Shown: piece by piece, positions 34,418 through 40,933 of the stretch
Layout: each line of letters begins with the position of its first letter
Position numbering within the stretch: the stretch's first letter is position 1
Origin: an uncultured Dehalococcoidales bacterium
GTDB taxonomy: Bacteria; Chloroflexota; Dehalococcoidia; Dehalococcoidales; BS750m-G39
NCBI GenBank assembly: GCA_964456815.1
Contig: CAYWCO010000001.1
Location: forward strand, 1 to 46,977
DNA: 46,977 nucleotides
Reading direction: 5' to 3'
Position numbers and translations under genes: made by a program
Notes under the pieces: model-generated
The model's database searches: none
What the model was told of the DNA's origin: nothing
The model's input: only the letters and a program-made list of their open reading frames with translations

Positions 34418-34510
34418 GTGTCTAAACGGCGTGCTCTACTCTATGCCCTACTGGGAGTGGGTATCCTTATGGTCACCGTAGGCCTAATTCTCGCCCTGTT
34501 ACAATCCTGA
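34418..34510 (+). CDS. Single-TM micropeptide P1 (30 aa)
   Basis: GTG start 7 nt after GAAAGGAG. MSKRRALLYALLGVGILMVTVGLILALLQS*. Too short for the ORF track. Confidence 0.5.
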   Translation: MSKRRALLYALLGVGILMVTVGLILALLQS

Positions 34511-34532
34511 CAAGCACAAAAATTTGCTCAAT

Positions 34533-34567
34533 ATCTTAACCGGAATTTAATATTTGATTGCTATGAT
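34533..34567 (+). promoter_or_regulatory. Box S2: ATCTTAA-ccgg-AATTTAA, 11 nt, TATGAT
   Basis: 7-mers at 34533-34539 and 34544-34550; -10 at 34562-34567. The flanks resemble S1 (tatttgattgc vs tatttagatgc). Confidence 0.55.
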
Positions 34568-34604
34568 TAAATCATCAAATAATAGAAAGGGGGGTGAAAC
34601 ATAA

Positions 34605-35036
34605 ATGTGGCATAGTAAAAAGTTTCTTCTGGCTACGGTCCTGGCTATAGTGGTGCTACTTGGGAGCATAGGCGGGGTTGCTCTTGCCCAGACAGGTACC
34701 GGAGATGACAGCCAGCCTGCAGCTCAACATGAGGCTCTGCTGAATAGAGTCTGCGCCATCTATGAAGAGAACACAGGCGTAGCTATCAACTCTGAGGAGC
34801 TAGAAAATGCCTTTACCCAGGCTCGAGATGAGATGCAAGCAGCTGCTATGGAAGACCGTCTTGCCAAGATGGTAGAAAACGGCGTGATAGATGAGGCACA
34901 AGCTCAGGAGCTTCAAGAATGGTTAGAGTCAAAGCCGGATGTAGCTATCCCGTTTACACCCGGGTTTTCTGGCCATGGCATGCCTCGCGGCTTCGGTGGT
35001 TTCCCCGGTGGGGATGCACCAGAACCCACAGAATAA
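34605..35036 (+). CDS. Secreted acidic helical protein with a Gly/Pro-rich tail (tentatively YckD/DUF2680- or Spy/CpxP-like in role)
   Basis: Signal peptide ...GGVALA/QTG. Contains the element MVENGVIDEAQAQELQEWLESKPD. RBS AAAGGGGGGTGA. Followed by a strong terminator. Confidence 0.7.
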   Translation: MWHSKKFLLATVLAIVVLLGSIGGVALAQTGTGDDSQPAAQHEALLNRVCAIYEENTGVAINSEELENAFTQARDEMQAAAMEDRLAKMVENGVIDEAQAQELQEWLESKPDVAIPFTPGFSGHGMPRGFGGFPGGDAPEPTE

Positions 35037-35074
35037 CTAACGAGGATTCCACACCGATAACCTAGCTGACCATA

Positions 35075-35110
35075 AGAGGGAGGGGGATACCCCCCTCCCT
35101 CTTTCTTTTT
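35075..35110 (+). terminator. Intrinsic terminator
   Basis: AGAGGGAGGGGG-ata-CCCCCCTCCCTCT followed by TTCTTTTT. Confidence 0.8.
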
Positions 35111-35140
35111 AACAATTTCTTAACATTTGTGGTATAACAT
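35106..35140 (+). promoter_or_regulatory. Box S3: TTTTTAA-caat-TTCTTAA, 11 nt, TAACAT
   Basis: 7-mers at 35106-35112 and 35117-35123; 24 nt upstream of the response-regulator ORF. Confidence 0.5.
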
Positions 35141-38757: not shown

Positions 38758-38771
38758 GGAGGGCAACCCCA

Positions 38772-39440
38772 ATGATCCGATTACAGGATATAGCTAAGGT
38801 CTATCCCATGGGTAAAAGAGAGCTGGCCGTGCTCAGAGGGGTAAATCTCAACATTGAAAAGGGCGAACTGGTGGCGATTATGGGTCCCTCCGGCTCGGGC
38901 AAGACAACCCTGCTTAACCTGATTGGTTGCCTGGATCAACCGACATCCGGTAGCTACTATTTGGGGGGTAAAGAAGTCAGCCGGCTCAGCAGCGACGAGT
39001 TAGCCCAAATCAGGGCGCAGAAGATTGGTTTTGTCTTTCAGACTTTTAACCTGCTGCCACGGCTCTCGGCACTGGCAAATGTGGAGCTTGGTATGAGATA
39101 TGCTGGCGGAAGCGACCCAAAACGGGCTCTCAAGGCACTGGATAAGGTCGGACTCTCCAACCGAGCTAATCACCGTCCTACCGAGCTTTCCGGTGGGGAG
39201 CAGCAAAGAGTAGCCATAGCCCGGGCTCTGGTAAAAAGGCCTCCCCTGATTCTGGCCGACGAGCCTACCGGTAACCTAGACAGCCGCTCCGGCGAGGAGA
39301 TAATCTCCATCCTCACCTCTCTACATGCCGAGCGGGGCATTACGCTGGTCATGATAACTCATGACGCCGGCATTGCTCACCACTGCCAGCGAATCATACA
39401 CCTCAAGGATGGGCAGGTGGTGTCAGAGGAGACCGTATGA
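38772..39440 (+). CDS. MacB/LolD-type ABC ATP-binding protein
   Basis: [35 protein letters not shown]. Confidence 0.92.
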
Positions 39441-40738
39441 AAAAGTGGCTTCTGAAAAAGTGGCTAGAGCCTTTAGAGACTGCTTTGATTAGCGTTGCCA
39501 CCCGTAAGGGTGTGAAGAGGTGGTCTGAACCCTTATCAACCGCCTGGGTTGGTGTGGTTACTCATAAACTCCGTAGCTCCCTGACCATGCTTGGGATTGT
39601 CATTGGCGTAGCCGCTGTGATTAGCCTGATGTCCGTTGGGCGGGGTGCTGAGGCACAGATTATTTCCAATATTGAACAAATGGGTTCAGACCTGATAACC
39701 ATCCGTCCTGGCTCGTTCACCTTTGGCGGTGTCAGGGGTGGCGTCTCGGAAACACTAACCATAGAGGATGCAGAGACAATATCAGAACAGGTTCCCTATG
39801 TTTCAGCCGTTGCCTCTTCTTACTCAAGCAACCTGCAGCTGGTTGTGGGGGGTGAGAATATGAGTGCTACGGTCACCGGCATAACCCCCGAATATATGCA
39901 GATAAACAACATGAAGATTGCCAGTGGCGCTTCCTTCTCGGAGCAGGACTACCAGCGCGGTGCCAAGGTAGCTGTGGTCGGTACCAATGTTGCCGAAACT
40001 CTGTTTGGCAATGCTAATCCTATAGGGCAACAGATGCGGATGGGCACTATTATCGTGCATGTCATCGGTGTTCTGGAGAGCAAGGGGACCAGGTTCAACT
40101 CCCCGGATGATGCCGTCTACATCCCGCTGGCCGCCATGCAGCAAGCGGTGGCTCAGCCGCGAACCCCCCAGGGCGGCCGCATTGTGAGCACTATATCCCT
40201 GACGGTAAGTGACCAGTCACAGACACAGAATGTCATTGATACTATCACCAGCCTGCTCCGCACCAACCACAAGCTCACCGCCTCTGCTGATAACGATTTC
40301 AATATCATGTCCACAGAGGAGATAGCCAGCACTCTCTCCGAAACGATGGGCACGATGACCCTCCTTCTGGGTGCTATTGCCGCCATTTCACTGCTGGTAG
40401 GAGGCATCGGTGTGATGAACATCATGCTGGTCTCAGTGCTGGAGAGAACCAGAGAGATAGGCATCCGCAAGGCACTCGGCGCCAGGGAGCGGGACATATG
40501 GCTTCAGTTCCTTATTGAGGCAGCCTTCCTGACCTTCGCCGGGGGTATTATCGGGGTTGTCCTGGGCTGGGTAATTGCATATTTGGTCTCCAGCATGGGG
40601 TTAATGACGACTGTAGTTACTGCTGATATAGTTATCCTTGCCGTCTCAGTATCGATTTGCATTGGTCTGTTCTTTGGTTTTTATCCGGCGTGGAATGCTT
40701 CCCGACTGAATCCAATTGAAGCACTAAGAGCTGAGTGA
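39437..40738 (+). CDS. MacB/FtsX-type ABC permease (4 TM with a large extracytoplasmic domain)
   Basis: KLRSSLTMLGIVIGVAAV TM1, MacB_PCD-like domain, FtsX C-terminus. ATGA coupling with the ATPase gene. Confidence 0.9.
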   Translation: MKKWLLKKWLEPLETALISVATRKGVKRWSEPLSTAWVGVVTHKLRSSLTMLGIVIGVAAVISLMSVGRGAEAQIISNIEQMGSDLITIRPGSFTFGGVRGGVSETLTIEDAETISEQVPYVSAVASSYSSNLQLVVGGENMSATVTGITPEYMQINNMKIASGASFSEQDYQRGAKVAVVGTNVAETLFGNANPIGQQMRMGTIIVHVIGVLESKGTRFNSPDDAVYIPLAAMQQAVAQPRTPQGGRIVSTISLTVSDQSQTQNVIDTITSLLRTNHKLTASADNDFNIMSTEEIASTLSETMGTMTLLLGAIAAISLLVGGIGVMNIMLVSVLERTREIGIRKALGARERDIWLQFLIEAAFLTFAGGIIGVVLGWVIAYLVSSMGLMTTVVTADIVILAVSVSICIGLFFGFYPAWNASRLNPIEALRAE

Positions 40739-40762
40739 TGGGCGTTCAGAAAAGGATATCCG

Positions 40763-40798
40763 TTTACAACGGTTTCTTAAATGTCATGTTGACAACTT
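40763..40798 (+). promoter_or_regulatory. Box S5: TTTACAA-cggt-TTCTTAA with only a weak -10 (CAACTT)
   Basis: 7-mers at 40763-40769 and 40774-40780, 25 nt after the permease stop. No plus-strand ORF follows. Confidence 0.4.
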
Positions 40799-40849
40799 TA
40801 CCAAAAGCACAGACGCTCTAGGTAGGCTGGAGTGAGGGCTTGATTCCCA

Positions 40850-40933
40850 TCAGAACACGCCAAAAAACGTAAGTGCCCACCATATGAGTGCAAGAACTAG
40901 TACTCCCAACAGGACGTAAATTAGTGTTCTCAT
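40850..40933 (-). CDS. Single-TM micropeptide P2 (27 aa)
   Basis: ATG 9 nt after GAGGGAG. MRTLIYVLLGVLVLALIWWALTFFGVF*. Shares a core with P1. Confidence 0.45.
   Translation of the reverse strand: MRTLIYVLLGVLVLALIWWALTFFGVF

Follow-up and report, generated by a model that had tools for sequence, protein, structure and literature searches.

The 46,977-nucleotide (nt) stretch analyzed here (the window; positions 1 to 46,977 of contig CAYWCO010000001.1, assembly GCA_964456815.1, from an uncultured Dehalococcoidales bacterium) contains two very small open reading frames (ORFs), P1 and P2, each predicted to encode a micropeptide with a single transmembrane (TM) helix. An earlier note on this DNA had taken them for a similar pair that brackets a two-component/ABC transporter module. 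When the locus is analyzed in the context of related genomes, a different arrangement emerges: P1 and P2 are quite probably independent coding genes, P1 belonging to a regulated cassette and P2 having its home beside mtaB, a tRNA methylthiotransferase gene. We favor this reading because both ORFs behave as coding sequences, with conserved start codons and Shine-Dalgarno (SD) sequences, a bias towards synonymous change, and neither an RNA-fold nor an Rfam signal. The positions, strands and good SD sequences given for them in the earlier note can be read directly from the window:

34418..34510, + strand: P1, a 30-aa single-TM micropeptide; GTG start; SD sequence AAGGAG at 34406-34411, spacing 6 nt
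40850..40933, - strand: P2, a 27-aa single-TM micropeptide; ATG start; SD sequence GAGGGAG at 40949-40943, spacing 9 nt; outside the cassette

On comparative evidence, P1 can firmly be regarded as coding and under purifying selection as a peptide. Its product, MSKRRALLYALLGVGILMVTVGLILALLQS (read directly from the window sequence), starts with an SKRR basic patch followed by one TM helix that reaches or nearly reaches the C-terminus; 2-4 residues lie beyond the helix and there are no cysteines. Both the GTG start and the SD sequence are kept in 13/13 orthologues, taken from three genomes and ten metagenome contigs. Codon differences between P1 and its copy in genome G001 comprise five synonymous and no non-synonymous changes, and the ratio of non-synonymous to synonymous substitution rates (dN/dS, NG86 method) against five orthologues is 0, 0.16, 0.14, 0.25 and 0.41. 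Even within the invariant core of the peptide, LLYALLGVGIL, synonymous codons vary between orthologues. The RNA of P1 shows no structure signal when its folding is compared with that of shuffled sequences (z = 0.21), and the sole Rfam matches in the P1/P2 region are two tRNAs, with none on P1 or P2. Both micropeptides are absent as called proteins from the public protein collection that we searched. We also considered whether P1 might be a duplicate of the promoter and signal-peptide region of its neighbor, the gene for a 143-aa protein (Sec143), and rejected this, as P1 and the N-terminus of Sec143 align with a score of 30, which equals background.

P1 opens a 6.4-kb cassette as its first transcription unit. 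The cassette has the following parts:

34324..34357, + strand: predicted promoter of P1, consisting of box S1 (TCTTAACAGGTTCTTAA, 34324-34340) and the -10 hexamer TATTAT (34352-34357)
34534..34567, + strand: predicted promoter of the 143-aa gene, consisting of box S2 and the -10 hexamer TATGAT
34605..35036, + strand: Sec143, a secreted or N-terminally anchored acidic helical protein of 143 aa
35074..35103, + strand: strong intrinsic terminator with a 13-bp stem, ending the P1/Sec143 transcription unit(s)
35107-35123, + strand: box S3, preceding the regulator gene
35164-35871, + strand: OmpR-type response regulator gene
35861-37204, + strand: HAMP/HisKA/HATPase histidine kinase gene
37223-37239, + strand: box S4, preceding macA
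37270-38757, + strand: HlyD/MacA-like adaptor
38772-39440, + strand: ABC ATPase
39437-40738, + strand: MacB_PCD/FtsX permease, the right end of the cassette

The link between P1 and the rest of the cassette is its operator. Boxes S1-S4, which start at 34324, 34534, 35107 and 37223, are TCTTAA-N5-TCTTAA direct repeats with an 11-bp register, and S1 ends 11 nt 5' of the -10 hexamer of P1. A direct repeat that ends 11 nt before the -10 hexamer is how the sites of OmpR/PhoB-type activators are classically laid out. The box is found exactly 94 nt 5' of P1 in the window as well as in G001, G002 and five metagenome loci (L084, L085, L087, L089 and L102), a fixed distance that bears out the proposal in the earlier note that S1 drives P1, at the level of a predicted promoter. 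The whole four-box plan recurs in G001, G002 and most metagenome orthologues, with L087 and L102 lacking a scoring box before the 143-aa gene. Genome-wide there are 10 sites that match at least 11 of the 12 half-site positions, three of them inside the cassette. We infer that S1-S4 are bound by the OmpR-type regulator of the cassette itself, and P1 is well supported, as far as predicted operators can take us, as an output of this regulon. In relatives of the cassette (L061, L066 and L075, at ~2171-3137) the same box lies ~150 nt 5' of a gene for a Trypsin_2/HtrA-like secreted protease, which suggests that the regulon may be an envelope- or secretion-stress response. P1 is thus a concrete candidate for a small-protein component of an envelope-stress-type two-component regulon outside the Proteobacteria and Firmicutes.

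P1 is also a member of a conserved family. The family profile (A4), defined by a basic N-terminus, the motif LY-x-LLG-x-GI-(5)-G and a protein that ends with the TM helix, recovers 81 representative clusters among 1.84 billion proteins; these are mostly 27-60 aa long, always carry the motif at the extreme C-terminus, and share the invariant positions L8, Y9, L11, L12, G13, G15, I16 and G22. Within the genome of the window (G000), the only matches to the profile at E <= 0.01 are P1 and one paralogue:

contig C106 of G000, 439-534: P3, the own-genome paralogue of P1; product MSTKLRILYILLGVGIVTLGVGLVLLFTCGG

The genomes sampled yielded clear matches in a few families, all in the same order, and two weaker matches in other parts of the class; the complete genomes of family f10 gave none. 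Of the P1 and P3 orthologues that we looked up, none has been given a functional name except for one P3 orthologue, which IMG labels automatically as "nitrogen fixation-related uncharacterized protein"; this label mirrors a sub-threshold match to FixS/CcoS (PF03597; 12.3 bits for P3 with a cut-off of 23.1, and none for P1).

The genes of this family occur in three kinds of context. The first is the module type, in which P1 is followed in order by the genes for Sec143, regulator and kinase and usually by MacA/MacB/FtsX, as in G001, G002 and 13 metagenome contigs. Variants of it have the P1-family gene between two paralogues of the 143-aa type (L061, L066, L075 and L095), or between the 143-aa gene and macA beside a different, divergently transcribed two-component system (L060, L063, L100, L124 and L126); the type-B loci carry another kinase/regulator pair, with 34-47% identity. 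The second context is that of P3, in the order rmuC, a 37-aa basic peptide, P3, a membrane protein of ~135-235 aa and NAD kinase, and was seen at ~25 metagenome loci and in several genomes. Finally there are orphan copies (G030) and longer proteins of 76-185 aa in which the family helix forms a C-terminal anchor (L115-L117, P0049, P0073 and P0024); one such anchored protein has an N-terminal double zinc-ribbon. The conserved, highly basic ORF of the P3 cluster (37-45 aa, ...NRTRGFVNLNRFKSG[RK]AIKKL...) overlaps the P3 start by ATGA in G000 (C106:329-534; L022), is found likewise at L008:1385-1590, L025, L098, L114, L128 and L129, and in relatives overlaps the stop codon of rmuC, so that rmuC, basic peptide, P3, membrane protein and NAD kinase appear to form a translationally coupled cluster. 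Neither Pfam nor NCBIfam has a match for the basic peptide. A literature search on small membrane proteins of the Dehalococcoidia returned no papers, and the P1/P3 family, its two syntenic subfamilies and its association with a new type of secreted helical protein seem not to have been described. A conserved micropeptide family with two stable contexts is hereby added to a poorly studied uncultured lineage, the Dehalococcoidales.

Within the module context, the neighbor that stays constant is the 143-aa-type gene. P1-family genes are found near a two-component system at 9/28 genome loci and at 16 metagenome loci, some of them related, and at each of these the family gene is directly beside a 143-aa-type gene, upstream of it, downstream of it or between two paralogues. 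At L061, L092 and L094, P1 is still accompanied by the genes for the 143-aa protein, regulator and kinase, but MacAB is not adjacent. Given this constant adjacency, the loci without MacAB and the type-B loci with their other kinase/regulator pair, the 143-aa-type protein is the common denominator. In one lineage the two are joined: P0027 (206 aa) and nine cluster mates (10 members) are in-frame fusions, in which a lipoprotein paralogue of the 143-aa type ends in P1. The fusion arose where the TAA stop codon of the lipoprotein gene, 12 codons before the GTG of P1 and still intact in L095:2-271, was changed to TAY (Tyr). It may be read as Rosetta-stone-type support for a physical link between P1 and the 143-aa protein.

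Sec143 itself has a conserved N-terminal hydrophobic segment in which G20 and G24 are nearly or fully invariant and A28 is invariant; this pattern would suit cleavage by signal peptidase as well as retention as a TM anchor. In the AlphaFold2 (AF2) model the mature part consists of three predicted helices, with a predicted local distance difference test (pLDDT) score of 80-90, followed by a disordered tail rich in Gly and Pro. Sec143 has no assignable family: a PDB profile search gave no relevant match, Foldseek against the PDB gave nothing at E <= 0.001, and Pfam gave sub-threshold noise only. Membership of the CpxP/Spy family, which we also considered, is unsupported by sequence (Pfam, PDB profile) or fold (AF2 with Foldseek).

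Alternatively, P1 could serve the exporter, as an accessory subunit of the AcrZ/YknW kind that is co-induced with MacA/MacB/FtsX, binds the TM domain of the permease and tunes its activity. This would agree with the operator that P1 (S1) has in common with the pump operon (S4), and with the type-B loci L063, L100 and L124, where the P1-family gene is immediately 5' of macA; efflux-modulating small proteins are, moreover, established (AcrZ, PMC12648545; YknW/AcrZ, PMC5985334). However, the family gene is retained at L061, L092 and L094, where no MacAB is adjacent, many MacAB modules are without it, and the paralogue P3 is encoded far from any pump. We therefore consider a pump-accessory role unlikely.

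P2 has a different genomic home, which the following features describe:

34132..34285, + strand: tRNA-His(GTG) and tRNA-Arg(TCG), the left edge of the cassette insertion; they abut P2 in G002
40996..41001, - strand: TATAAT hexamer 5' of P2, with a weak -35
41016..42290, - strand: mtaB (tRNA t6A37 methylthiotransferase; TIGR01579, 424 bits), with P2 directly 3' of it in 3/3 genomes that have P2

The predicted product of P2 is MRTLIYVLLGVLVLALIWWALTFFGVF (read directly from the window sequence), with a basic N-terminus and then one hydrophobic helix, within which the peptide ends. Its orthologues were found only in G003 (93% identity) and G002 (58%), sister species of the same genus, and both are located directly 3' of mtaB with the TATAAT and SD sequence conserved. 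The TATAAT that the earlier note assigned to P2 is thus present (41001-40996) and is kept in both G002 and G003; its -35 is unconvincing, however, and the promoter scan missed it. P2 has no operator box of the TCTTAA type. No P2-like ORF was detected 3' of mtaB in G001, G004, G005 or G012, with three other genera covered; in G001, mtaB is followed by a 123-aa gene instead of P2, then by tRNA-Arg and a tyrosine-recombinase-like gene. A second mtaB copy in G001 is interrupted by TGA. The weak match of P2 to PsbT (PF01405), at 15.8 bits, is below the Pfam gathering cut-off of 22.4 and reflects a generic TM helix only.

P2 is probably coding as well, to judge from its pattern of substitution. Relative to G003, 9/11 changed codons are synonymous and 2 are non-synonymous (dN/dS 0.06, a sign of purifying selection on the peptide), against a non-coding spacer beside P2 that has acquired indels and diverged faster. 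The G002 orthologue keeps the start, the SD sequence, the MRTL... and ...LTFF ends and nearly the length (29 vs 27 aa), despite 34 nt of indels upstream. It could be argued instead that P2, or less likely P1, is untranslated, and that what is conserved is a recently diverged intergenic region or an element of the mtaB 3' untranslated region: P2 is known from three close genomes only, its dN/dS with respect to G002 is 0.88, it is uncalled in public protein sets and it has no good -35. Against this stand the mostly synonymous changes next to an indel-bearing spacer and the retention of a start, an SD sequence and a length of 27-29 aa, and P2 has neither an RNA structure signal (z = 0.59 in folding against shuffles) nor an Rfam match. 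We hold this explanation to be improbable. Judged by its distribution, P2 is a young, genus-restricted micropeptide gene in the variable spacer between mtaB and tRNA-Arg, outside the module, and our best guess is that its product is a small membrane protein, made either from the weak promoter of P2 itself or through read-through of mtaB transcription.

The apparent bracketing of the module by P1 and P2 can be explained by following the cassette across the sister genomes. The order in G002 is mtaB-P2-tRNA-Arg-tRNA-His-smr-mobB; these are the window flanks joined, with the cassette absent. The cassette of G002 is on a separate contig beside proB and that of G001 adjoins a nucleotidyltransferase gene, and thus three species (G000, G001 and G002) have it at three sites. 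G003 has P2, and no P1 cassette was found in its assembly, which is 82% complete. The shared cassette sequence spans from box S1 to the stop codon of the permease, where homology with G001 and G002 ends, and neither of these cassettes has a P2-like gene at its right end. No clean empty site was found in G000 at the positions that the cassette occupies in G001 and G002, as homology stops at the flanking gene. Since the cassette occupies different sites, and P2 stays with mtaB in all three genomes that have it, the bracketing is, on this synteny, a by-product of cassette insertion between tRNA-Arg and P2 in G000. The description in the earlier note is accurate for this window but not conserved in G001 or G002, and the synteny that it proposed to examine holds for P1, which is conserved beside the two-component system, but not for P2, which is syntenic with mtaB while the module is elsewhere (G002) or not found (G003). 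The spacer between tRNA-Arg(TCG) and mtaB is variable throughout the genus (window 34285-34323 and 40739-40849; G002 L011:1458-1810; G001 L079, L083), containing only P2 in G002, P2 and the 6.4-kb cassette in G000, and the 123-aa gene with the tyrosine-recombinase-like gene in G001.

A further possibility is that P1, P2 or both are membrane toxins of a type I-like kind, or a bacteriocin- or pheromone-like peptide whose export or immunity would come from the ABC system and which the kinase would sense. Both peptides are short and very hydrophobic, P2 ends inside its helix, and one operator is used for the peptide, sensor and exporter genes. An operator common to such genes resembles the regulons of peptide autoinduction. 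There is also a candidate antisense promoter facing P2, box S5 (TTACAA-N5-TCTTAA, 40763-40790, + strand), which overlaps a weak bidirectional hairpin (40760-40772). However, S5 matches at 9/12 half-site positions only and sits in junction sequence without a counterpart in G001 or G002, so that there is no conserved antisense promoter. Neither peptide has a double-glycine leader, and a peptidase domain is missing from the ABC system; strong SD sequences and unstructured mRNAs (z = 0.59 and 0.21) are unlike typical type I toxin mRNAs. In addition, longer proteins carry the P1 motif as their C-terminal anchor, a 143-aa-type protein is joined to it in one lineage, and P3 is part of a housekeeping-type operon. 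The membrane-toxin class raised in the earlier note thus finds no toxin-type feature here, and we regard the toxin and exported-peptide readings as very unlikely.

The resemblance between P1 and P2 deserves closer attention, because it illustrates how such similarities can mislead. The aligned cores, RALLYALLGVGIL and RTLIYVLLGVLVL, do have 8/13 identities, as had been reported, and the Smith-Waterman score of the two peptides is 39, compared with a mean of 20.3 (standard deviation 4.1) for composition shuffles, of which 0.14% reach 39. This null is too easy to beat, as shuffling destroys the architecture of a charged N-terminus followed by a TM helix. When 262 TM-like segments of 30 residues from long ORFs of the same genome are used instead, 1.1% of them score at least 39 with P1 and 0.8% do so with P2, the highest score being 41; the next-best scores among 95 small hydrophobic ORFs of the genome are 35-36, and P1 scores 67 with its paralogue P3. 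Comparison of the P1/P3 family with the P2 family by hhalign gives a probability of 9.5%, and the P1-family hidden Markov model (HMM) scores 59.1 bits for P1, 9.2 bits for P2 and 4.9 bits for the G002 orthologue of P2, where the LIYVLLG stretch of P2 reads LTWVLVG, with loss of the invariant Y and LLG. The similarity claimed in the earlier note therefore exceeds the shuffle comparison that it had set, but stands at about the 99th percentile of real TM segments from the same genome, which reach 39 in ~1% of cases; by these measures P1 and P2 are unrelated, and their resemblance is within the range of two unrelated TM helices. That the two are nevertheless related micropeptides which jointly flank and service the kinase/exporter module, as MgrB/SafA-like modulators or a toxin pair, would accord with their single TM helices, strong SD sequences, 8/13 identities exceeding shuffles and flanking positions in the window, yet is made highly improbable by the G002 arrangement (P2 beside tRNA-Arg with no module between), the G001 and G002 modules without a P2-like gene at the right end, and the low hhalign and HMM scores. 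Two points of wider use follow: two short TM peptides may resemble each other by chance even when their score exceeds that of composition shuffles, and the synteny of sister genomes separated a real link (P1 and its module) from an accidental one (P2).

Several observations weigh against the interpretation that we prefer, of independent genes with P1 tied to its cassette and to Sec143. P1-family genes are missing from ~2/3 of related modules, with ~16 complete MacAB/two-component modules lacking one, and P1 must therefore be dispensable for the core system and accessory to it. Family members are found in unrelated surroundings too (the rmuC/NAD-kinase cluster and the G030 orphans), so that the partner is not fixed. 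With 2-4 residues outside the membrane, contact between P1 and a cleaved, soluble 143-aa protein is impossible, and any tethering model requires that the anchor stays uncleaved or that P1 has another TM partner. The fusion may be a tolerated accident, since the basic patch of P1 would face outward in it, contrary to the positive-inside rule. The cassette ends in G000 have no att-like direct or inverted repeats of at least 8 nt, and no integrase marks the cassette there. For P2, the dN/dS of 0.88 with respect to G002 implies that sequence constraint is weak beyond hydrophobicity, start and length.

Bearing these points in mind, a mechanism can be outlined for P1. Activation of the kinase would lead to a phosphorylated regulator that switches on all four units, namely P1, Sec143, regulator/kinase and exporter. 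P1 would insert with its N-terminus inside, following the positive-inside rule, and the glycine face of its helix (G13, G15 and G22) could then pack against another TM helix of the same response. The likeliest partner would be the N-terminal hydrophobic segment of Sec143 and/or the kinase, with a pump-accessory role being less likely, and P1 might in this way tether or tune an envelope-stress feedback loop. That P1 acts through the 143-aa protein or the kinase is a tentative proposal, possible though somewhat doubtful in our view. A bolder and rather unlikely extension is that P1-family peptides are dedicated intramembrane partners of new secreted or anchored helical stress proteins, the two forming a regulator-induced, two-piece tether that feeds back on the kinase, with the P3 subfamily acting likewise for another membrane protein. 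If true, a monoderm-like Chloroflexota lineage would possess a functional analogue of CpxP-CpxA control that is split over two pieces.

Comparison with known systems helps to place P1. Small membrane proteins that are induced by two-component systems or target their kinases (MgrB, SafA and UgtS) are well established, as are those that bind transporters, such as AcrZ on a pump and KdpF on a transporter (PMC12648545), and a review of MacB leaves room for small partners of pumps of this type (PMC5985334). The likeness to MgrB, SafA and UgtS is that P1 is a single-TM peptide whose gene is predicted to be under the response regulator of its own system, with possible feedback via the membrane sensor. 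The suggestion in the earlier note that small membrane peptides act with the two-component system accordingly stands for P1, conserved and tied to the module by its operator, but not for P2, which has no link to the module. MgrB, however, needs a periplasmic region and two conserved cysteines, whereas P1 has practically no extracytoplasmic segment and no cysteine, and the constant genomic partner of P1 is the gene of a secreted helical protein rather than the kinase as such. With AcrZ (49 aa, binding AcrB) and YknW (of YknWXYZ, a MacB-type system) P1 shares co-induction, through an operator common with the MacA/MacB/FtsX operon; in contrast, the P1 family persists without adjacent MacAB, is missing from most MacAB modules and has no homology to either, and YknW is a multi-pass Yip1-type protein.

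The regulon as a whole recalls Cpx (CpxAR, CpxP/Spy and DegP) and CssRS-HtrA, in that the output of an autoregulated two-component system would include a small secreted helical protein, joined in relatives by an HtrA-like protease. It differs in that Sec143 has no CpxP/Spy match, a MacB-type exporter and a micropeptide are further members of the regulon, and the host is a metagenome-assembled Dehalococcoidales genome, with a different envelope. FixS/CcoS and PsbT are single-TM micropeptides of similar size with weak profile matches to P3 and P2, respectively, but these matches extend over a generic TM helix only, the conserved cytoplasmic part of FixS is absent, and no gene context seen here suggests a photosystem. 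P1 has no Pfam or NCBIfam match at E <= 1, with the MgrB models included, and P2 has only the weak one to PsbT. Because it combines this lack of a profile match with the lack of an extracytoplasmic domain and of cysteines, P1 is best described, from its sequence and context, as a regulator-controlled small membrane protein of the same general kind as MgrB that would belong to none of the families named.

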